This document shows, piece after piece, positions 16,374-51,144 of a stretch of 64,000 nt of DNA; position 1 is the first letter of the stretch, and each line of letters begins with the position of its first letter. Origin of the DNA: Chthoniobacteraceae bacterium (lineage in GTDB: Bacteria; Verrucomicrobiota; Verrucomicrobiia; Chthoniobacterales; Chthoniobacteraceae); contig JANNXQ010000239.1 in the NCBI GenBank assembly GCA_031409655.1, positions 1 to 64,000 of the forward strand, read 5' to 3'. Below the pieces are notes generated by a model. It had not been told where the DNA came from and ran no database searches. It was given only the letters and a program-made list of their open reading frames with translations. The position numbers were made by a program, and so were the translations under genes.

Positions 16374-18386
16374 ATGGACCGCCTCGCCTACATTCTCTAC
16401 CGGATCGTTTCCGCGGTGATCCGCGCGCTCCCGCTGGCCGCCGGCTACAGGTGCGGCTACGCGCTCGGCACAGTGGCGTGGCACCTCGCGCTGCCCTATC
16501 GCCGGCTCGTCCGGGAGAATCTCCGCATCGCCTTTGGCCAGGAAAAATCGGAGTCGGAAACCGAAACGATCGCAAAGGCGCACTTCGCCATGCTCGGCGC
16601 GAATCTCTTCGCGAGCCTCAAGCTGCCAACCCTTTCTCGTGCGGAGATTGAAAGCGTCGTCACTGTCGAAGGCCTCGATCACATGGACGCTCAGATCGCC
16701 GCGCGCGGCGGTTTTGTCTTCGTCATCAGCCACATCGGAAACTGGGAAATGTTCGCCCAGCTCACGCCCTACATTTTCAAGTGCAAGACCGGCACGATCT
16801 ATCAGCGACTCGGGAATCCGTATCTCGATGCGGAAGTGCGCCGCTCGCGGGCCCGGCTCGGCATGGAGCTTTTCGAGCGGAAAGAGGGCTTCGTCGCTGC
16901 TTCCAAATTTCTGCGCGAAGGTGGAGCCGTCGGAGTGCTCGTCGATCAGCACGCAGGCGATGCCGGGCTGTGGTGTCCATTTTTCCGACGCCTCGCCTCG
17001 ACCAGCACGCTGGCCGCCACGCTCGGGCTGCGCACCGGCGCAAAGCTGATTCCTGCCGCGGTGTACAATGATGGCGCCGCCCGCTGGCGCATCGTCCTCC
17101 AGGCGCCGATGCCCACCAAGGACGCGACCGCCGAGTCGATCACCGTGCGGATCAACGAAGTCCTCGAAGCGCAAATCCGCCTGCAGCCCGAGGACTGGTT
17201 CTGGGTTCACAACCGTTGGAAAACACCGCGCCCGAAGTTTCTCCTGGCGACTTACAAGCGCGGGGTGGCCGGGGTAACTGATGTGCATAGTGACTCGGGA
17301 ATCGTAGATGGAGGCGGAGTGTCCGCACCCGATTCACCATTCACCAGTCACGATTCACTCTCCCCCTTCCGCATCTTGATTCGCGCGAGCAACTGGCTCG
17401 GCGACGCGGTGATGACTGTGCCCGCGGTGCGCGCCATCAAGGCCGGACGGCCCGATGCGCGCGTCACGATTCTTACGCAGGAGAAGCTTGCCGACTTTTG
17501 GCGAAGTGTCGCCGAGGTGGAGGAAGTCATCGGCATCGCCGCGGCAGAGACGGTCTTTGACGTTGCGCGCAAGCTGCGGGGAAAATTTGACGTCGCGATC
17601 CTTTTCCCAAACTCGTTGCGCACCGCCCTGGAAGTGTGGCTCGCTGGCATTCCCCGCCGCGTCGGCTCCCCGGGCCATCACCGCACTCGGCTGCTCAATC
17701 AGGTCTTCATCCCGAAGCGAAAGACCCCGGTGCCACGGCCTCGCCATCAGGTTCACGACTACCTCGCACTTGCCGAGTTCGTCGGCGCTGAAGTGAATGG
17801 TGACTTGGGAATCGTGAATGGGCGCGTGCCTTCCATCCACCAATCACCAGTCACCATTCACGACTGTCGCCCCCCCACCATCGGCCTCTGCGCTGGAGCC
17901 GAGTACGGTCCCACGAAACGCTGGATGCCCGAGCGTTTCGCCGAAGTCGTGAGCGCCGTCCGCGCTCGCACCGGCTGCGAGTGGAAGCTCTTCGGCGTCG
18001 ATAGGGATCTCCCGATCACGGACCAAATCCTGATGGCAGCAGGTGGCCCGCTGCGCTCGTTCGTAGGGCAGACCACGCTCGCCCAACTCATGGATGAACT
18101 GCGCACCTGCGACCTCCTCCTGACCAATGACACCGGCAGCATGCACCTCGCCGCGCACCTCGGCGTGCCGACCGTCGCGCTCTTCGGCTCCACCGAGCCG
18201 TCGCTCACCGGCCCGCTCGGCCCTGGCCATCGCATCGTGCGCCATCACGTCGATTGCAGTCCGTGCTTCCTGCGCGAGTGCCCGCGCGATTTTCGCTGCA
18301 TGAAGGCGATCACGTCGAGCGAGGTGATCGTCGCCGTCGAAAACGCACTCCGCGAAAAGACGGTTATTGGTTCCTTCGCATCGTGA
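16374..18386 (+). CDS. Fused lipid A late acyltransferase (LpxL-like) + LPS heptosyltransferase II (WaaF, GT9)
   Basis: N-domain SHIGNWE, LVDQHAG, DWFWVHNRWK; C-domain NWLGDAVM, GAEYGPTKRW, TNDTGSMHLAA; one uninterrupted ORF. Confidence 0.9.
   Translation: MDRLAYILYRIVSAVIRALPLAAGYRCGYALGTVAWHLALPYRRLVRENLRIAFGQEKSESETETIAKAHFAMLGANLFASLKLPTLSRAEIESVVTVEGLDHMDAQIAARGGFVFVISHIGNWEMFAQLTPYIFKCKTGTIYQRLGNPYLDAEVRRSRARLGMELFERKEGFVAASKFLREGGAVGVLVDQHAGDAGLWCPFFRRLASTSTLAATLGLRTGAKLIPAAVYNDGAARWRIVLQAPMPTKDATAESITVRINEVLEAQIRLQPEDWFWVHNRWKTPRPKFLLATYKRGVAGVTDVHSDSGIVDGGGVSAPDSPFTSHDSLSPFRILIRASNWLGDAVMTVPAVRAIKAGRPDARVTILTQEKLADFWRSVAEVEEVIGIAAAETVFDVARKLRGKFDVAILFPNSLRTALEVWLAGIPRRVGSPGHHRTRLLNQVFIPKRKTPVPRPRHQVHDYLALAEFVGAEVNGDLGIVNGRVPSIHQSPVTIHDCRPPTIGLCAGAEYGPTKRWMPERFAEVVSAVRARTGCEWKLFGVDRDLPITDQILMAAGGPLRSFVGQTTLAQLMDELRTCDLLLTNDTGSMHLAAHLGVPTVALFGSTEPSLTGPLGPGHRIVRHHVDCSPCFLRECPRDFRCMKAITSSEVIVAVENALREKTVIGSFAS
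17283..17358. repeat. Inverted heptamer-array hairpin B (GTGAATG / CATTCAC type), in-frame in the LpxL-WaaF linker
   Basis: GTGCATA GTGACTC GGGAATC GTAGATG ... GATTCAC CATTCAC CAGTCAC GATTCAC. Confidence 0.85.
17793..17861. repeat. Inverted heptamer-array hairpin C, in-frame in the WaaF inter-domain linker
   Basis: GTGAATG GTGACTT GGGAATC GTGAATG ... CATCCAC CAATCAC CAGTCAC CATTCAC. Confidence 0.88.
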
Positions 18387-18446: not shown

Positions 18447-19433
18447 ATGTCCCAAACCCAGGAACTCACCGACAAAGTCAAAGCCCAGAGCCATTGGATC
18501 AAACCGTTGCAGGATGAAATCTCCCGCGTCGTCGTGGGGCAGCGCTACCTTGTGGATGGGCTGCTCGTCGGCTTGCTCACGAATGGGCATATCCTGCTGG
18601 AAGGCGTGCCGGGGCTGGCGAAGACGCTGACCGTCAAGACGCTGGCGAACTGCATCAATACGGGATTCAGCCGCCTCCAGTTCACGCCCGATCTGCTGCC
18701 GGCGGATCTCATCGGCACGCTCATCTACAATCCGCGCAGCGGGGAATTCACGACAAAGAAGGGGCCGCTCTTTTCCAATCTCATCCTTGCGGATGAGATC
18801 AACCGCGCGCCGGCCAAGGTGCAGAGCGCGCTGCTCGAGGCGATGCAGGAGCGGCAGGTGACGATCGGCGATACCACGTATCCGCTGCCCGATCCCTTCC
18901 TCGTCCTCGCGACGCAAAATCCGCTCGAACAAGAGGGCACCTACCAGCTCCCCGAAGCGCAGCTCGACCGCTTCATGCTCAAGCTCAAGGTCGGCTACCC
19001 GAGCAAATCCGAGGAGCGGCAGATCCTCGACCTGATGGCTACGAGCGCACCGAATCTCAAGGTGCTGCCGATGCTCGATCCGGCGGACATTCTCCGCTCC
19101 CGCGAACTGGTGAACTCGATCTACGTGGATGATCGGGTGAAGGATTACATCGTGGATGTGGTCTTCGCGACGCGTGATCCGAAAGCTTACAAGCTCAAGC
19201 TCGAAGGCATGATCCGCTACGGCGCGAGCCCGCGCGCGACGATCAATCTCACCCTCGCCGCCCGCGCCCGCGCCTTCATGGCGGGCCGCGGCTACGTGAC
19301 GCCGCAGGATATCAAGAGCGTGGGACCGGATGTGCTCCGCCACCGCATCATCGTCAGCTACGAAGCGGAAGCGGAGGAGGTGACGAGCGAGCAGATTATC
19401 GAGACCATCTTTAATGGGCTGGCGGTGCCGTGA
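18447..19433 (+). CDS. moxR: MoxR-family AAA+ ATPase
   Basis: LLEGVPGLAKT, RLQFTPDLLPAD, DEINRAPAKVQSALLEAMQERQVT, GASPRA. Confidence 0.96.
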   Translation: MSQTQELTDKVKAQSHWIKPLQDEISRVVVGQRYLVDGLLVGLLTNGHILLEGVPGLAKTLTVKTLANCINTGFSRLQFTPDLLPADLIGTLIYNPRSGEFTTKKGPLFSNLILADEINRAPAKVQSALLEAMQERQVTIGDTTYPLPDPFLVLATQNPLEQEGTYQLPEAQLDRFMLKLKVGYPSKSEERQILDLMATSAPNLKVLPMLDPADILRSRELVNSIYVDDRVKDYIVDVVFATRDPKAYKLKLEGMIRYGASPRATINLTLAARARAFMAGRGYVTPQDIKSVGPDVLRHRIIVSYEAEAEEVTSEQIIETIFNGLAVP

Positions 19434-19444
19434 GGTGGGGCTGC

Positions 19445-19926
19445 GTGATTGGTGATCGGTGAATGGTGATTGGTATGGCCGTTGCAAAATCGTTTCGTGA
19501 CTTGAATGTCTACCGCCTTGCGCGGGAAGCGGCGCAGGAGGTTTTTCGCGTTTCCAAGGCGTTTCCAAAGGAGGAGCGGTTTTCGCTCACGGATCAGATT
19601 CGGCGCAGCTCGCGAGCGGTGAATGCCATGATCGCCGAAGCCTGGGCGCGGCGGCGCTACAAGGCGGCATTCATCAACAAGATCGACGAGGCCCTAGGGG
19701 AAGCGATGGAGACGCAGGCGTGGCTAGACCATGCTCTGGATGCCGAATACCTGACGCAGCAGAATTTTGCGAAGCTGGATGCAAATTGTCGTTCCGTCAG
19801 TGCCATGCTCGCGCGCATGATCGATCGCGCTGCGGACTTCTGCAAAAACGCATCGGATACGGACTACCGCGCGCTGGCGGCAGGCGACGCTGAACCACCA
19901 ATCACCACTCACTAATCACCAATCAC
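19445..19926. mobile_element. Putative inserted element D: four-helix-bundle gene bracketed by inverted 4x7-bp arrays
   Basis: Left 19445-19472 GTGATTG GTGATCG GTGAATG GTGATTG; right 19899-19926 CAATCAC CACTCAC TAATCAC CAATCAC; separates moxR and DUF58, which are usually adjacent. Mobility is inferred. Confidence 0.6.
19475..19915 (+). CDS. Four helix bundle protein (23S rRNA intervening-sequence protein family)
   Basis: SFRDLNVYR, FPKEERFSLTDQIRRSSRAV, IAEAW, EAMETQAWL motifs; alternative ATG at 19463. Confidence 0.93.
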   Translation: MAVAKSFRDLNVYRLAREAAQEVFRVSKAFPKEERFSLTDQIRRSSRAVNAMIAEAWARRRYKAAFINKIDEALGEAMETQAWLDHALDAEYLTQQNFAKLDANCRSVSAMLARMIDRAADFCKNASDTDYRALAAGDAEPPITTH

Positions 19927-19934
19927 ATTCCCGA

Positions 19935-20837
19935 ATGGAATCCGCCCGCGAAATCCTGAAGAAGATCCGCCGCCTCGAGCTGAAAACTCGCGGGATGGTC
20001 GAGGCTGCTTTCGCGGGGCAGTATCGCAGCGTCTTCAAGGGACGCGGGATGAACTTTGATGAGGTGCGCGAGTATCAGCCGGGGGATGAAGTGCGGACGA
20101 TTGATTGGAATGTGACGGCGCGCCTCGGCGAGGTGCGCGGCGAGGCTTACGTGAAAAAGTTCACCGAAGAGCGCGAGCTCACGGTGATGCTCATCGTCGA
20201 TGTGAGCGCGTCGGGGGATTTCGGGAGCGTGAATCTGAGCAAGCGCGAACTGGCCGCGGAAGTGGCGTGTCTGCTGGCCTTCAGCGCCATTCGCAATAAC
20301 GACAAAGTCGGGCTCTTACTTTTTTCGGATCATGTCGAACTCTTCATCGCTCCGAAAAAAGGCCGCATTCACACGCTCCGGCTCATTCGCGAGATTTTAT
20401 TCTTCGAGCCGGAAGGGCGGGGGACCGAGCCGGCGCTCGCACTCGATTTCCTGAACCGGGTCCTGCATCGCCGTTCCGTGGTATTCCTGATCTCGGATTT
20501 TCAGGCACCCGATTTTTCCAAGCAGCTCGCGATCACCGGACGGCGGCACGACTTGATCGCCATCCCGATCGTCGATCCGCGCGAGGAGGAGTTGCCCGAT
20601 GTCGGACGCGTGACCTTTGAGGACGCGGAGACCGGGGAGCAGATCGAAATAAATACTTCCGACCGGCTGACCCGGCTGAGGTATGAGCAAACTTTCGGCA
20701 TGCTGGCCGATGACCGCATGCGCGATTTCCGGCGCAAGCGCGTCGATACGATTTCGCTCAAGACCGACGTGGATTACCTCCCGGCCTTGCGTAATTTTTT
20801 CCGCGTCCGCGAACGGAGGCTCCAGCTCCGCGCATGA
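19935..20837 (+). CDS. DUF58 protein (MoxR-associated)
   Basis: FKGRGMNFDEVREYQPGDEVRTIDWNVTAR, VDVSAS, VFLISDF. Confidence 0.95.
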   Translation: MESAREILKKIRRLELKTRGMVEAAFAGQYRSVFKGRGMNFDEVREYQPGDEVRTIDWNVTARLGEVRGEAYVKKFTEERELTVMLIVDVSASGDFGSVNLSKRELAAEVACLLAFSAIRNNDKVGLLLFSDHVELFIAPKKGRIHTLRLIREILFFEPEGRGTEPALALDFLNRVLHRRSVVFLISDFQAPDFSKQLAITGRRHDLIAIPIVDPREEELPDVGRVTFEDAETGEQIEINTSDRLTRLRYEQTFGMLADDRMRDFRRKRVDTISLKTDVDYLPALRNFFRVRERRLQLRA

Positions 20838-21388
20838 TCGCCGCCCTTTCGACCCCGCCGCCAGCCCCTCCGGCTCCGCCGACTGGACCCTTCCCGCCAG
20901 AGCCGCCGGATCTCCGCGACATCGCACCACCCGTGGATGTCTTTCCGTGGCCGACCTGGATGGTCGTAGTCGCGGCCATTGTCGTGCTGCTCCTGCTGGC
21001 GGCCCTCGTCTATTTCATAGTGCGCTGGATTCGAAACCGCCCGCCACCGATCCCTCCGAGCCCGCAGTCCATTGCCTTGCGCGAGCTGCGGAAGCTGCAA
21101 CCCCAGACGGCGCGCACCGAGCCGCACGAGTTCACCTTCGCCGTCTCCGATGTCCTGCGCACGTATGTCAGCGCCGAGTATCGAGTGCGCGCCACCGAGC
21201 AGACCTCGCCGGAGTTCCTTGCCGTCATCGGCCAGTCGGTAAAGTTCGCCGACGCCGAGCGCACCCTGCTCGCGGACTTCCTCGAGCGTTGCGACCTCAT
21301 CAAGTTTGCCCGCATCGACGCGGATTCGACGGACAATGAACGTCTGCTCGAAAGCGCGCTGCGTTTCGTGGAAGGAGGCCGGGCGTGA
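20834..21388 (+). CDS. Single-TM Bat-operon accessory protein (DUF4381-like)
   Basis: LRDIAPP followed by a TM helix; EQTSPEFL and CDLIKFA motifs; operon position. Confidence 0.8.
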   Translation: MIAALSTPPPAPPAPPTGPFPPEPPDLRDIAPPVDVFPWPTWMVVVAAIVVLLLLAALVYFIVRWIRNRPPPIPPSPQSIALRELRKLQPQTARTEPHEFTFAVSDVLRTYVSAEYRVRATEQTSPEFLAVIGQSVKFADAERTLLADFLERCDLIKFARIDADSTDNERLLESALRFVEGGRA

Positions 21389-22404
21389 ACAATCTGAAGT
21401 TCGACTCATTTTCATTCGCCCAGCCGTGGTGGCTTTTGCTCCTCCTCCTGGTGCCGCTCCTCGCCTTTTTGAAAGGCGGGCGCGGGGCGGCGCCGGCGGT
21501 GGTCTTCTCTTCTTTGCGGCCGATGCACGGGGTGGGGAAGGTGCGGAAATCGCGCGCGGGCGGGTGGCTGGCGAGTTTGCTCCTGCTCGGGCTGGCGCTG
21601 CTGCTCGCGGCCTTGGCGCGGCCGCAGATGGGGAAGACGCTGAGCCGGGTGGAGGCGAGTGGGATCGATGTGATCCTGGCGCTGGATGTCTCGCGCTCGA
21701 TGTTTGCGGAGGATTTCATCATCGGCGGGCAGCGGGCAAATCGTCTCGATGCGGTGAAGCAGGTGACGCAAAAATTCATCGAAGGCCGCCCGCATGATCG
21801 GATCGGGATCGTGTGCTTTGCCGGTCGTCCGTATCTCGTGAGCCCGCTGACGCTGGATCACGATTGGCTGCTGCAAAATTTGGAGCGCATCCGCATCGGG
21901 CTCGTGGAAGATGGCACGGCGATCGGGTCGGCGATCGCCTCGGCGTCGAATCGCCTGAAGGACCGCGAGTCGAAGAGCAAGATCATCGTGCTGCTGACGG
22001 ACGGCGATAACAACGCGGGGAAGGTGCCGCCGCCCACGGCGGCGGAGGCGGCGGCGGCGCTGGGGATCAAGATCTACACGATCGGCGCGGGTACGCGTGG
22101 CTATGCGCCGATCCCGGTCCAGGACGCTTTCGGTCGCACGGTGTATCGGAACATCAAAGTCGAGGTGAACGAACCGATGCTGAAAGAGATCGCGACGAAG
22201 GCGAATGGGCAATTTTACCGAGCGACGGATGCGGAATCGCTGGAGCGGATCTACAGCGAGATCGATCAACTGGAAAAATCGACGGTCGAGCTCAGCCAGT
22301 ACAAACAGTATCGCGAACTCTTCCCGTGGTTTGTGGCGGCGGGGCTGGCGGCGCTGGCGCTCGGTGCGGTCTTGGGGGAGACGGTGTGGAGGCGGCTACC
22401 ATGA
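21385..22404 (+). CDS. batA: VWA domain protein BatA
   Basis: FAQPWWL, ALARPQ, MIDAS DVSRSM, SPLTLDH, GTAIG, LLTDGDNNAG. Confidence 0.93.
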   Translation: MNNLKFDSFSFAQPWWLLLLLLVPLLAFLKGGRGAAPAVVFSSLRPMHGVGKVRKSRAGGWLASLLLLGLALLLAALARPQMGKTLSRVEASGIDVILALDVSRSMFAEDFIIGGQRANRLDAVKQVTQKFIEGRPHDRIGIVCFAGRPYLVSPLTLDHDWLLQNLERIRIGLVEDGTAIGSAIASASNRLKDRESKSKIIVLLTDGDNNAGKVPPPTAAEAAAALGIKIYTIGAGTRGYAPIPVQDAFGRTVYRNIKVEVNEPMLKEIATKANGQFYRATDAESLERIYSEIDQLEKSTVELSQYKQYRELFPWFVAAGLAALALGAVLGETVWRRLP

Positions 22405-22544
22405 GGAAAATGGGGAACGCCAAACTTCAAACTTCAAACTTCAAACGCCAAACGAATCTGTCTGGACGCTTGGACCGACGTTTGGCGTTTGAAGTTTGGC
22501 GTTTGAAGTTTGGCGTTCATGGGGCAGCGAGGAGGTTCATCTGA
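22401..22544 (+). CDS. 47-aa repeat-derived mini-ORF bridging the batA stop and batB start
   Basis: ATG overlaps batA TGA (ATGA); its own TGA overlaps batB ATG (TGATG); MRKMGNAKLQTSNFKRQTNLSGRLDRRLAFEVWRLKFGVHGAARRFI. Translation not shown. Confidence 0.5.
   Translation: MRKMGNAKLQTSNFKRQTNLSGRLDRRLAFEVWRLKFGVHGAARRFI
22416..22517. repeat. Inverted heptamer-array hairpin E (AACTTCA/AACGCCA type); 39-bp arms, 24-nt loop
   Basis: 22416-22454 vs 22479-22517 are reverse complements at 37 of 39 positions. Confidence 0.95.
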
Positions 22545-24499
22545 TGACTTTCGCCCATCCTCAATGGTTCTGGGCTCTGGCCCTGCTACCCCTGCTCCTG
22601 GTCATCTTTCTGAATAACGAAATGCGGCGGGCAAAGCTGCTCCGACAACTCGTCGCGGCGCGCTTGCAGGATCGGCTGGTCGGCAGCGTCAGCGTCATCC
22701 GGCGGCGGGTGCGTTTTTCCCTGCTCCTGCTCGCTCTGGCTTGCGCGGTCGTCACGCTCGCCCAGCCGCGGTATGGATTTTCCTGGCAGGAGAGTCAGCG
22801 GCGGGGACGCGACATTATCCTCGCGATCGATACCTCGCGCAGCATGCTGGCCACGGATCTGGCGCCGAGCCGGCTGAAGCGGGCGAAGCTCGCGGCGCAG
22901 GATCTCATCGGGCTGCTCGAGGGGGACCGGGTGGGGCTCGTGGCGTTTGCGGGTTCGGCCTTTCTCCAAGCACCGCTCACGGCGGACTATGGCGCGGTGA
23001 TCACGGCGCTGGAGGAACTGGACACGGAGATCATCCCGCAGGGCGGCACGAATATCGAAGAGGCGGTAAAGGCGGCGCTGGATGCCTTTGGCAAAGGCGA
23101 GAGCGATCACCGCTGCCTGATCCTTTTCACCGATGGTGAGGAACTCGACGCAAACGGGGTGCGCGCAGCGGAGCGGGCAAAGGACTCGATGCGGATCTTC
23201 ACCGTGGGGCTGGGCTCAAGGGACGGCAGCTTCATCCCGCTGCCCCGCGAAGGGGGCGGAACGAATTTCGTGCAGGATGGTCAGGGGCAGTATGTCAAAT
23301 CGCGTCTCGATGAAGATCGTCTGCGGAGCATTGCGGAAGCGACCGGAGGCTTCTACCTTCACCTCCTTAATGGCCCCGCGGAGATGCAGCAGATCGTCCG
23401 CGACGGCCTTGGATCCATGACCGAAAAAGACATCGACGCCAAATCCTCCCGCCAGCCAATCGAGCGCTACCAGTGGCCGCTCGGTGCGGGGATCCTTTTT
23501 CTGGTGGCCTCGCTGCTCATCGGCGAGCGCAAGCGGGCCGGGCGCCTCGTCGTGCCGCGCCGTTTGGCGAAGGCCGCCGCGGCATTGATCTTCCTCCTGC
23601 CGGCGCTGGCGGAGGCGAAAAATTCCGGGGTGACGAAATACGAAAAGGAAGACTTCAAGGGCGCGCTGGAGACCTTCACGAAACAGCTCAGCCGGAAGCC
23701 GGACTCGGAGGCCTTGCACTTTAATCTGGGGGCCGCGGCCTACAAAGCGGGGGAGCTGGATCGCGCGTTGGATTCATTTGCCAAAGCCGTGACGACGTCT
23801 GACCCACAGCTCCGCGCCAAGGCCGAGTACAATATCGGCAACACTCTCTTCCAGCGCGGCACGGGACAAAAGGAAACGGACGCGAAACTGCAGGAGTGGC
23901 GCGGGGCGCTTCAGCATTACGAAGAGGCGTTAAAAGTGGAGCCGACGGATGGCAATGCGGAGCACAATCGAGATCTCGTGAAGAGGATGATCGAGGATCT
24001 CGAGAAGCAGCAGCAGCAGCAGCAGTCCAAAGATCAGCAGAAAAAGGATCAGGAGAAAAAGAAGGGCGACGAAAAGAAGGATGGGGAGAAGTCCGAAGGT
24101 GACGAGCCACAGGAGGGTGAGGGGAGTGAATCGAAGGACGGCAAGTCGAAGGATGGTCAGAAGAAGGAGAAGGGCGACGGCGAGAAGAAGGAGAAGGACG
24201 AGGCGGGCAAGGATGGGGAGAAAAAGAAGGACAAGGACGGTGACAAAAAAGGCGAGCCAACGCCCGAGGAGGCGGCCAAGAAGAAGGAGGGCGAGATGAA
24301 GGCTGCGCCGCAGTACGAGCAGGGGGAGGGTGATCCGGAGAAGCAGGAAGCGGAAGATGCCGCCGCCGCCGCGATGGGGAAGATGACGGAACAGCAGGCC
24401 GTGGCCTTGCTCGAATCACTGAAGGCCGAGGACGACCGGGTGCAACTCCGTGAGCGCACCGATCGGCCGGCGCCGGGTCGAACTTTTCGTGATTGGTGA
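22544..24499 (+). CDS. batB: BatB-BatC-like fusion: VWA + TM + TPR + charged low-complexity tail
   Basis: DTSRSMLATDLAPSRL, FTDGEE; TPR LHFNLGAAAY and AEYNIGNTLF; Q/K/D/E-rich tail ending FRDW; GGAGG SD at 22531. Confidence 0.9.
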   Translation: MTFAHPQWFWALALLPLLLVIFLNNEMRRAKLLRQLVAARLQDRLVGSVSVIRRRVRFSLLLLALACAVVTLAQPRYGFSWQESQRRGRDIILAIDTSRSMLATDLAPSRLKRAKLAAQDLIGLLEGDRVGLVAFAGSAFLQAPLTADYGAVITALEELDTEIIPQGGTNIEEAVKAALDAFGKGESDHRCLILFTDGEELDANGVRAAERAKDSMRIFTVGLGSRDGSFIPLPREGGGTNFVQDGQGQYVKSRLDEDRLRSIAEATGGFYLHLLNGPAEMQQIVRDGLGSMTEKDIDAKSSRQPIERYQWPLGAGILFLVASLLIGERKRAGRLVVPRRLAKAAAALIFLLPALAEAKNSGVTKYEKEDFKGALETFTKQLSRKPDSEALHFNLGAAAYKAGELDRALDSFAKAVTTSDPQLRAKAEYNIGNTLFQRGTGQKETDAKLQEWRGALQHYEEALKVEPTDGNAEHNRDLVKRMIEDLEKQQQQQQSKDQQKKDQEKKKGDEKKDGEKSEGDEPQEGEGSESKDGKSKDGQKKEKGDGEKKEKDEAGKDGEKKKDKDGDKKGEPTPEEAAKKKEGEMKAAPQYEQGEGDPEKQEAEDAAAAAMGKMTEQQAVALLESLKAEDDRVQLRERTDRPAPGRTFRDW

Positions 24500-28687: not shown

Positions 28688-28794
28688 CCTGGGAGCGCCG
28701 CCGTCCCGAGCGGCATCCTTTCAATCGCGCAGCGCCAATTCGTGCGCGCTACGCGCGAATGGCACGATGCCGCACGGGACGGCGGCGCTCCCGG
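28688..28794. repeat. REPIN/MITE-like palindromic element, copy 2 (between proB and proA)
   Basis: CCTGGGAGCGCCGCCGTCCCG...CGGGACGGCGGCGCTCCCGG. Confidence 0.88.
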
Positions 28795-28833
28795 GGATGA
28801 CTTTCCGCGCATTCCGTGTATCTCGTGGACTTC

Positions 28834-34840: not shown

Positions 34841-36861
34841 TCCGACGGCCGACTTCAACCGCCAAACTTCAACCGCCAAACTGCAAAGGGCGGGACGAAA
34901 TGTGGGCTTCACATTTTGTGTTTCGCGTTTGGTGTTTGGCGTTTGCCGTTCTCCTTTTTGCCGGCTGCGGCAATGACCCGAATCCTGAGCCCCTCCACAA
35001 GACTCGCGCCGACGGCAAACCTTGGGTGACGAGGTATGCTGGGTTGACTGAAGACCCGCGCTCCTTTGATCCGCAGTTCTCGTATGATCAGATGAGCCGG
35101 CGCGTGCTCGAAGCGGTGTACGACACGCTGCTCGAGTATCACCCGATGAAAACGGATCCTTACGAGGTCCGGCCGGCGCTGCTTGCGGACCTGCCGGTGA
35201 AGGAGGTCTCCGCCGAGGGCAAGATCAGCTACCTCTGCCGGCTGAAGACTTCCGCTCGCTTCCACGATGATGTTTGTTTCCCCGGAGGCAAAGGTCGTCA
35301 GGTCGTGGCGGGCGACGTTCTCTACGGCTTCCAGCGGCTTTGCGATCCGAAGGTCGAGTCGCCCTTCCTTTCCAATCTCGCGGAATACATTCCCGGCTTG
35401 CAGCAAGCGCACGACGCCGCGGAAAAGAGCGGCACTTTCGACTACGCCGCCATACTCCCTGGTATTGAAGTTCTGGATGCGCAGAGTTTCCGTATCCATC
35501 TGACCAAGCCGTATCCCCAGCTCAGCTACTGGCTGGCGATGCACTGCACCACGCCGGTCGCGCGCGAAGCGGTCGAATACTACGATGGCAAGGAGCACGA
35601 TGGGGTGGTGCGGCCCGACTTCCACAAATTTTACGCCGTCGGCACTGGTCCTTACCGCGTTCGCGAATACACCCCGCGGCAGCGGGTGCGCCTGGAGCGG
35701 GTGGAAGGTTACGCCACCACGACTTTCCCGAGTGACGGTTTTCCGCCGGAGAAAGCCGCGTGGCTGCAGCAGTTTGCCGGCAAACCATTACCCCTCTCGG
35801 ATGAAGTCAACCTCGCCATCATCCGCGAAAACATCCCCATCTTCATCCTCACGCGGCAGGGTTATCTCGATGGCATGGCGGTCAATAAGGATGCCTTTAA
35901 CGCCATGCTCACGCCGACCCGCGAACTGGCACCCAAGTACAAGCAGCGCGGGATGTTTCTGGAGAAAGATATCGAACCCAGCACCTTCTGGATCAGCTTC
36001 AATATGGAAGACCCGATCGTGGGGCAGAATAAGAAGCTGCGCCAGGCGCTCTCCTGCTCCTACGATGCGCAGACTTACTCGGATATCTTCTATAGTTCCG
36101 TCGCGCCCGTCGCGGAGCAACTGATCCCGCCCGGCCTCTTCGGCTTCGATCACGCCTGGCGCAATCCCTACGGGCACGATCCCGAGCGTGCGAAACGCCT
36201 GCTGGCCGAGGCTGGCTATCCAGGAGGACGCGATGCCAGTGGGAAGCAACTCGAACTGACGCTCGATTGCGCCGCGGTCGGCAGCGAAGACCGGCAGCGC
36301 GTGGAGTTCGTGCAGCGCGGCATGGAGCGACTCGGAGTGAAGGTCCGCGTCATTGAAAACACCTTCGCCCATCTTTTGCGGAAACAGGACACCGGTGACT
36401 TCCAGATGGCCGACGGCACCGGCTGGGGCGCGGACTATCCCGATCCAGAGAATTTCTTCTTCCTCCTCTACTCGAAGAATGTGCCCCCGGCCGGCAAGAA
36501 CATCAGCCGCTTTCGCAATCCGGAGTTCGACCGGCTCTTTGAGCAAATGGCCACCATGGAAAACGGTCCCGAAAGGCTGGCGATTGTGCAACAGATCACG
36601 ACGCTGGTCGGAGAGGAGGTCCCGCAGATCCTCAATTTTCACAAAGCCTTTTACAGCACGGTGCAGCCTTGGGCTCCGCGGACGCACAATAACTTGATGC
36701 TGGAAGGCGGCTTGAGGTTTCTCACCATCGACCCCGTGTTGCGGGAGAAATTACGCGGTGAGTGGAATCGCCGGCCACTTTGGCCACTGGCGCTCCTTGG
36801 CGTCCTGCTTGCCGCGGCGATCGGCTACGCGGTGCGTTGGAATCGGAGGATGAATGCTTAA
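34837..36861 (+). CDS. Peptide/nickel-family ABC substrate-binding lipoprotein with C-terminal TM helix
   Basis: Lipobox LFAGC; VGTGPY, GWGADYPDPENFFFLLY; C-terminal hydrophobic helix; start GTG 34837 or ATG 34900. Confidence 0.88.
   Translation: MIRRPTSTAKLQPPNCKGRDEMWASHFVFRVWCLAFAVLLFAGCGNDPNPEPLHKTRADGKPWVTRYAGLTEDPRSFDPQFSYDQMSRRVLEAVYDTLLEYHPMKTDPYEVRPALLADLPVKEVSAEGKISYLCRLKTSARFHDDVCFPGGKGRQVVAGDVLYGFQRLCDPKVESPFLSNLAEYIPGLQQAHDAAEKSGTFDYAAILPGIEVLDAQSFRIHLTKPYPQLSYWLAMHCTTPVAREAVEYYDGKEHDGVVRPDFHKFYAVGTGPYRVREYTPRQRVRLERVEGYATTTFPSDGFPPEKAAWLQQFAGKPLPLSDEVNLAIIRENIPIFILTRQGYLDGMAVNKDAFNAMLTPTRELAPKYKQRGMFLEKDIEPSTFWISFNMEDPIVGQNKKLRQALSCSYDAQTYSDIFYSSVAPVAEQLIPPGLFGFDHAWRNPYGHDPERAKRLLAEAGYPGGRDASGKQLELTLDCAAVGSEDRQRVEFVQRGMERLGVKVRVIENTFAHLLRKQDTGDFQMADGTGWGADYPDPENFFFLLYSKNVPPAGKNISRFRNPEFDRLFEQMATMENGPERLAIVQQITTLVGEEVPQILNFHKAFYSTVQPWAPRTHNNLMLEGGLRFLTIDPVLREKLRGEWNRRPLWPLALLGVLLAAAIGYAVRWNRRMNA
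34851..34950. repeat. Inverted heptamer-array hairpin F (same family as E) overlapping the signal-peptide coding region
   Basis: GACTTCA ACCGCCA AACTTCA ACCGCCA AACTGCA ... TTGTGTT TCGCGTT TGGTGTT TGGCGTT TGCCGTT. Confidence 0.85.
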
Positions 36862-51024: not shown

Positions 51025-51144
51025 CCTGGGAGCGCCGCCGTCCCCGTGCGGCAACCACGCACGCGCGCAGCGCCACTTTGCTTTCTAGAGGTGGCGCGGT
51101 GCGCGGAGGGGCACGATGCCGCACGGGACGGCGGCGCTCCCAGG
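51025..51144. repeat. REPIN/MITE-like palindromic element, copy 3
   Basis: CCTGGGAGCGCCGCCGTCCCCGTGCGGCA...TGCCGCACGGGACGGCGGCGCTCCCAGG. Confidence 0.9.

Follow-up and report, generated by a model that had tools for sequence, protein, structure and literature searches.

Repetitive extragenic palindromic (REP) sequences, palindromes resembling miniature inverted-repeat transposable elements (MITEs), and the palindromic elements that are inserted in frame in Rickettsia are among the known comparison classes for the element described here: a 143-bp insert, carrying a 40-bp heptamer-repeat hairpin, at the junction of the batA and batB genes of a Chthoniobacteraceae bacterium (Verrucomicrobiota). 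The insert lies in a 64,000-nucleotide stretch of DNA (positions 1 to 64,000 of the forward strand of contig JANNXQ010000239.1, GenBank assembly GCA_031409655.1), referred to below as the window.

In mycobacterial interspersed repetitive units (MIRUs), a repeat is found at a start codon, accompanied by a short open reading frame (ORF) that couples with the downstream gene at -4 spacing (Supply et al. 1997, PMID 9426136, as summarised in PMC12548453); the section of that review dealing with MIRUs presents the ORF as part of the element, and describes downstream expression as little disturbed. In integrons, the attC stem blocks the ribosome, and a short ORF restores downstream translation by termination-reinitiation (Jacquier et al. 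2009, as summarised in PMC8876359). The proteins of 23S rRNA intervening sequences are, according to the relevant part of PMC4990558, encoded in heptamer-armed four-helix-bundle cassettes (TIGR02436). Intergenic heptamer repeats have been described by MacGregor 2015 (PMC4679880), whose text does not contain the term translational coupling, and in a Geobacter genome paper (PMC2700814). How coupling itself works, whether by same-ribosome reinitiation, scanning or RNA unfolding, is treated as an unsettled question in a 2025 review (PMC12548453). A literature search, with most subscription papers and supplements outside its reach, returned no account of ORFs that bridge a palindromic or heptamer insert where two genes are coupled.

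A relay ORF crosses the hairpin insert

We consider it likely that hairpins have inserted recurrently at a coupled batA/batB junction, and that the relay ORF crossing the insert has been kept by selection for the hand-over of ribosomes to batB. In the window, the relay ORF (22401..22544, + strand) comprises 47 codons without an internal stop, while the other two sense frames contain one stop each inside the insert. It starts within the batA stop (ATGA at 22401, the stop codon itself occupying 22402-22404; spacing -4) and ends on the batB start (TGATG at 22542; spacing -1), with a second in-frame TGA at 22545. These two spacings are among those that the coupling section of PMC12548453 gives as favoured in termination-reinitiation. 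ATGA recurs at 22544, and in silico removal of 143 bp leaves a plain ATGA overlap of batA and batB. The joining ORF, the ATGA at both ends and the effect of the deletion had all been proposed in an initial annotation of the window, made from the letters alone, and each was borne out. A Pfam scan of the 47-aa relay peptide gave no match.

The hairpin arms (22415..22454 and 22479..22518, both + strand) are 40 nt each and complementary at 38/40 positions, which is equivalent to the 37/39 originally counted. The left arm holds approximately 5.6 heptamer units of the CAAAC class; the right arm consists of alternating heptamers that form a perfect 14-bp tandem repeat; and the 24-nt spacer between them (22455..22478, + strand) prolongs the stem imperfectly. 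The insert RNA is predicted to fold at -91.6 kcal/mol (z = -8.6), a value equalled by 0 of 200 shuffles and hence far beyond chance expectation. As first reported, the arms have two mismatches only. These are adjacent (left 22433-22434 opposite right 22500-22499) and amount to one heptamer type swapped for the other; one of the two positions can form a G-U pair. The right-arm heptamer that bears them (22497..22503, + strand) is the sole one in that arm to begin in the relay frame, where its first codon is Trp. If the right arm is altered in silico to pair fully, the predicted in-frame TGA arises at 22497; if the left arm is altered instead, no stop appears in the frame. Because the 14-bp tandem of the right arm is perfect, the change may have occurred in the left arm.

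A public DNA contig is identical to positions 21900-22445, including the left arm and its mismatch. The run behind this contig may be the source sample, and the match is therefore not independent support for the locus sequence. Among the contigs listed for four DNA runs, none of which spans the whole stretch, there is no joint skipping the insert. No RNA run was among the public sequencing runs listed as containing this sequence, which says nothing about expression. An Rfam scan of the window at gathering score returned 0 matches.

Structured inserts at the same junction in relatives

The junction was compared across 190 batA loci (numbered here with the prefix L), the closest of which are titled Chthoniobacteraceae or Chthoniobacterales. 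A usable batB was available for 180; nine loci without one, and one without an intact batA end, were left out. After excluding L044 (masked bases), counting L013 as a direct -1 overlap, and counting identical inserts once, 40 longer spacers remained. Spacers that fold at -10 kcal/mol or better (33/40) are termed structured inserts. A junction is termed linked, or bridged, if it is crossed from the batA stop to the batB start by a stop-free ORF or by a chain of two to three ORFs.

Direct overlap is common among the 114 distinct junctions with a gap of <25 nt: -4 overlaps account for 55 and -19 overlaps for 50. The -4 overlap is thus the commonest insert-free state, as would be expected from the initial annotation, which had suggested looking in relatives for a direct overlap of the ATGA type. 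Structured inserts are bridged in 32 of 33 cases; shuffling combined with random shifts in length predicts 3.1. In 29 of the 33, one ORF suffices and the gap is 1 mod 3; these bridging frames contain 0 stops, compared with 51 and 35 in the other two frames, and the batB start is precisely where 29 of the 33 bridges terminate. Three inserts whose length does not suit a single ORF (L043, L128 and L052) are crossed by chains of two to three ORFs that restart at RTGA (ATGA or GTGA) overlaps; the L052 chain overlaps batB by 10 nt. The only unbridged structured insert, L024, has no start in the batA stop, and its ORF runs from +3 to 9 nt before batB.

The structured inserts form 14 BLAST clusters, which include heptamer arrays of several unit types and palindromes that we take to be REP-like. 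Thirteen of the 14 clusters are fully bridged (1.57 expected; P = 2.5e-13). Insert lengths range from 46 to 280 over the clusters, and indels within clusters preserve the frame. Unstructured spacers are bridged in 2/7 cases (Fisher p = 1.8e-4 versus structured inserts). A 16-nt spacer with a 7-codon bridge and no hairpin was found in 10 loci (L092, L156, L160, L162, L164, L174, L175, L178, L183 and L189); L149 opens with these 16 nt and continues into a hairpin block of 81 nt, so that the hairpin must have been gained or lost in frame.

On a batA tree (156 sequences; FastTree, midpoint root, several weak nodes), gains and losses of an insert number at least 18. Lineages with a direct -4 overlap are scattered among those that bear an insert, and near-identical batA genes can carry unrelated inserts (L119/L058 and L188/L157). 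Inserts of 25 nt or longer are absent from the 53-sequence clade to which the -19 overlaps belong. Relay peptides are not conserved among inserts, and near-identical inserts differ by nine non-synonymous and two synonymous codon differences (four overlapping pairwise comparisons); the relay peptide itself is probably irrelevant. With almost every strong hairpin at batA/batB being spanned, the comparison suggests that only those insertions survive that still pass ribosomes to the next gene.

Control junctions and genome-wide counts

The moxR/DUF58 junction of the same operon provides a control, with direct overlap in 1/28 short junctions. An overlapping start codon precedes all 29 strong hairpins found there, and four of these are bridged (1.7 expected). 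Cassettes of >400 nt make up 16 of the 29; by our own count, two of the 13 shorter ones are bridged. An overlapping start codon together with a hairpin does not, therefore, by itself yield a bridge. Since the hairpins at moxR/DUF58 are similar, bridging depends on the site rather than on the element. Frame and length are shown to be constrained only where the junction normally overlaps. Alongside the interleaved -4 overlaps and the near-complete bridging at batA/batB, the control also supports the earlier proposal of insertion into a coupled ATGA junction.

The DUF4381/batA junction has too few inserts to test: 3/7 strong restart cases are bridged (0.55 expected), the four misses being gaps of ~980 nt. 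In L035, L045, L161 and L182, the ~980 nt that separate DUF4381 from the best match to batA seem to hold a second VWA gene, giving a tandem batA-like pair.

Genome-wide junction counts are based on gene calls made for this analysis. There are 254 co-directional junctions with a strong inverted repeat; the repeat follows ATGA in 54 of these, versus 7 of 194 convergent ends (p = 2e-8). After RTGA, 60 of 119 hairpin junctions are linked, where 18.8 are expected by shuffling and 30 by frame-shifting. The count is 35/54 after ATGA (8.5-14 expected) and 25/65 after GTGA (10.3-16 expected). Hairpin junctions with other restarts are linked in 2/16 cases, and those with no restart codon (start rule waived) in 22/119 (15.2 expected by shuffling and 30 by frame-shifting). 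After ATGA, a gap of 0 mod 3, the sole non-coupling class, occurs in just 3/54. Within the CAAAC class, 6/14 copies after RTGA are linked.

Arm mismatches and the in-frame stop

In three sets, repairing the arm mismatches gave 2, 6 and 4 stops in the bridging frame, versus 1, 5 and 1 and 0, 3 and 3 in the other two frames (p = 0.26, 0.31 and 0.26). Pooled, and with the index case included, the counts are 12 vs 7 vs 6 (12/25; p ~0.09, normal approximation). The same kind of mismatch occurs in L009 and in two other CAAAC bridges, and the avoidance of stops by mismatch may be real. The selection originally proposed is thus supported as regards an open frame kept across the insert, but not as regards a mismatch selected to remove a stop.

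Initiation signals and flanking genes

A GGAGG motif in the last codons of batA (22388..22392, + strand) lies 8 nt before ATG 22401. We infer that this motif, formerly the initiation signal of batB, has been taken over by the relay ORF; a Shine-Dalgarno (SD)-like motif is present at the equivalent place, at the end of batA, in 14/33 structured inserts. A second SD-like motif, AGGAGGT (22530..22536, + strand), lies 7 nt before the batB ATG. Using our own start calls, SD-like motifs precede 3.5% of 1435 free-standing ATG starts versus 15.7% of 434 -4 starts. Their rarity at free-standing starts and enrichment at -4 starts suggest that coupling may matter more in this lineage. The enrichment also means that AGGAGGT before batB fits a coupled start; the motif is no proof of independent initiation, though it may allow it. 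The 3' end of the 16S rRNA was not found in the assembly by a short-motif search. More generally, start contexts in the genome (own gene calls) are G-poor and C-rich, with little SD signal except at -4 overlaps.

The genes of the cluster are ordered moxR - DUF58 - DUF4381 - batA - batB - batD. The batA-like gene (21385..22404, + strand; 339 aa) encodes a BatA N-terminal domain (PF07584) and a VWA domain (PF00092), both above cut-off; the best match of the protein is VWA_BatA_Lepto (E 3e-56), under that model's cut-off. The batB-like gene (22544..24499, + strand; 651 aa) encodes a BatA N-terminal domain, VWA and TPR. The Pfam BatA model begins at batB residue 1, which supports ATG 22544 as the start. 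An N-terminal extension of batB from TTG 22496 was considered and rejected, the frame being closed at 22490 and the Pfam domain starting at ATG 22544.

Heptamer-armed elements in the genome

Under our own filter, the genome contains 528 period-7 arrays, with 145 inverted pairs, 119 of which have a spacer of 60 nt or less. Arrays of the CAAAC class number 155, of which 143 are intergenic. The genome also carries ten TIGR02436 four-helix-bundle genes, with 6- or 7-bp repeats in their flanks (read by eye), and a family-wide scan found at least eight inverted 7-mers common to both sides of the gene in 18/30 TIGR02436 loci. One such gene (19463-19915; TIGR02436 94.5 bits, cut-off 24) lies at the moxR/DUF58 junction between inverted heptamer arrays of another unit type (19445..19926, + strand). 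This cassette, in the same operon and 2.5 kb upstream of the insert, is a gene-bearing form of such an element. The insert shares with it inverted arrays of 7-bp units, and has no four-helix-bundle gene between its arms, where there is a 24-nt spacer only. Its heptamer arms, taken with the heptamer-flanked TIGR02436 genes, make it look like a gene-less member of a heptamer-armed group of elements, which we infer to be mobile. A gene-bearing partner with CAAAC arms was not found, in narrow searches, among 15 widely spaced arm pairs of this genome, in 41 genomes (one exact pattern), in 190 loci or in 30 TIGR02436 loci.

Several further elements were observed. Within the 19430-19935 cassette of the window, a 10-codon ORF leads from a GTG in the moxR stop (19430) to a TGA abutting ATG 19463; similar cassettes of ~500-550 nt lie at moxR/DUF58 in L033, L035, L052, L111, L157, L171 and others. 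In the four-helix-bundle flanks at C12, C63 and C184 of this genome, the arrays contain ATGA in the 7-bp unit, which puts a stop/start overlap in every unit, such that the arrays could form self-coupling ORF chains. At moxR/DUF58 in L108 (437-856), L081, L090, L166 and L167 there is a cassette of 430-500 nt with REP-like arms; the small ORF of the L108 cassette looks, by motif, like a GIY-YIG nuclease. Short hairpins with similar REP-like arms occur at batA/batB, suggesting a second pair of gene-bearing and gene-less elements.

Elsewhere in the window, positions 34845-34955 hold another CAAAC-class element, which is degenerate and has additional short hairpins, and heptamer-type hairpins are inserted in frame at 17278-17366 and 17788-17876 within a fused lipid A acyltransferase / heptosyltransferase II gene. 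A REP-like hairpin with 43-bp arms (28688-28795) separates amino-acid-kinase and aldehyde-dehydrogenase genes, which we take to be proB and proA; a frame from GTGA crosses this hairpin and ends 17 nt beyond the predicted ATG, and a related arm is located at 51115-51144.

Discussion

The comparison with relatives points to the following sequence of events. Ancestral batA and batB were coupled by an RTGA stop/start overlap. The overlap then received one copy of a heptamer-repeat hairpin that is dispersed in the genome, and the insert is now preceded by RTGA and followed by ATGA. The filler ORF would be opened by what was once the start context of batB. A ribosome ending batA could then restart on this ORF, unwind the 40-bp stem, stop on the batB ATG, and restart once more. 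An insert would cut batB output and be purged if its length mod 3 were unsuitable, or if it contained an in-frame stop that no other overlapping start makes good; the statistics above show selection of this kind. The filter would act at the site, on any repeat landing there.

Whether selfish palindromic repeats are generally filtered by coupled RTGA junctions is a question on which we are evenly divided. Under such a filter, strong hairpins of any family in this low-SD lineage would persist at these junctions only if an ORF or chain carries the terminating ribosome across. Heptamer-armed elements, as gene-less and mobile forms of four-helix-bundle cassettes, would repeatedly seek out such junctions and displace each other there. 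Since the 7-bp unit passes through all three frames, swaps and slippage of units could re-tune the relay. If true, these junctions would be a natural experiment, in which post-termination ribosomes cross short unstructured gaps and not stems.

The ORF might instead be kept so that ribosomes cover the hairpin, shielding the operon mRNA from RNase III or Rho-dependent termination, with the hand-over to batB secondary. A 40-bp near-perfect stem, as present at this junction, is a plausible RNase III substrate. RNase III is encoded in the genome, along with two Rho-like proteins just below the TIGR00767 cut-off; bridging tracks hairpin strength; and RNase III cuts heptamer-flanked rRNA intervening sequences, according to the relevant part of PMC4990558. 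Coverage does not, however, need a stop on the batB start, where most bridges end, and those bearing a restart never run far past it. Bridges that end there, rather than anywhere past the stem, favour hand-over above protection, and likewise above the melting of the stem alone. At the operon's moxR/DUF58 junction, most hairpins of equal strength lack a bridge, and the 7-codon bridge of the ten loci with a 16-nt spacer is kept without any hairpin. We therefore regard protection of the mRNA as unlikely to be the main reason for the bridges.

Somewhat less probable still is that the relay is a by-product, the start and stop being left over from the old overlap and the elements being pre-built, as has been put forward for MIRUs, with an open frame and an RTGA-suited length, with no host selection. 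Both ends are indeed inherited, in that batA ends with a Pro codon and TGA and batB mostly begins with ATG-A, and several inserts in one cluster share the length 112. Yet the spread of lengths over the 14 clusters, the frame-preserving indels, and the ORF chains that rescue wrong-length inserts do not fit pre-built elements; CAAAC copies at non-RTGA junctions carry a TGA unit in the equivalent frame, and both orientations occur. The unbridged state of similar element types at moxR/DUF58 largely refutes this account. A regulatory attenuator or leader, in which the 47-aa peptide or a ribosome stall tunes the batB:batA ratio, seems to us very improbable: the repeatedly struck junction could mean a tunable site, and some copies contribute an SD-like motif, but the inserts share no sequence, length or peptide conservation, most relatives have no insert, substitutions are mostly non-synonymous, and there is no Rfam or Pfam match.

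Some results weigh against selection for ribosome hand-over. An SD-like motif of its own precedes batB in the window, and likewise in 11/33 structured inserts, so that batB might initiate without the relay; the SD statistics depend on start calls made for this analysis. The removal of stops by mismatches is not significant as a population rule in the three sets. Genome-wide the rule is leaky, with 59/119 RTGA hairpin junctions unlinked, CAAAC-class copies included; junctions without a restart are slightly above the shuffle null (P = 0.04); and 25 of the 60 links are in-frame fusions, perhaps partly miscalled start codons of our own gene finder. Finally, the genomes of relatives are not independent, and clustering lessens this dependence without removing it.

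Selection for ribosome hand-over would have several uses. A single junction offers over 30 natural inserts, bridged if structured and mostly unbridged if not; together with the control in the same operon, these form a ready allele series for tests of coupling. A class of unannotated intergenic small ORFs would be explained as relays that are indifferent to their peptide, which bears on small-protein catalogues and on start-codon calling. It would also reveal a constraint on where repeats can spread.

Comparison with known systems

MIRUs reportedly lack dyad symmetry and target DTGA sites. Like a MIRU, the insert has a same-direction short ORF overlapping both neighbours, and its site is one of -4 (DTGA) coupling, where the tetranucleotide is present on either side of the insert. 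Unlike the MIRUs, which are one mycobacterial repeat group, it carries a 40-bp stem, and the inserts at this junction are strong palindromes of many unrelated types with site-dependent bridging. The palindrome, the bridging shared by unrelated elements, and the site dependence mean that the insert is not a MIRU. The ORFs of attC sites are similar in that a short ORF crosses a palindromic stem and a ribosome hand-over is proposed, the evidence here being evolutionary rather than experimental; attC sites differ in being gene-cassette recombination sites, which find no Rfam counterpart in the window, where no search for an integrase was made.

The inverted 7-mer arrays are shared with TIGR02436 cassettes, of which the insert resembles a gene-less version. 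Unlike the rRNA intervening sequences, it lies at an mRNA junction, and its mobility is presumed. Like REP and MITE palindromes, the heptamer elements are short, multi-copy and mostly intergenic, and some copies are read in frame with a gene; they differ in being heptamer arrays with variable loops and no fixed consensus. Unlike the Rickettsia palindromic elements, the insert does not become part of a neighbouring protein, but appears to be translated as an ORF of its own that is coupled on either side. The principle of a short ORF carrying ribosomes across a repeat is already in print for mycobacterial MIRUs and integron attC ORFs; what is new here is its occurrence across unrelated palindromic elements, at a single orthologous site, with a negative control.

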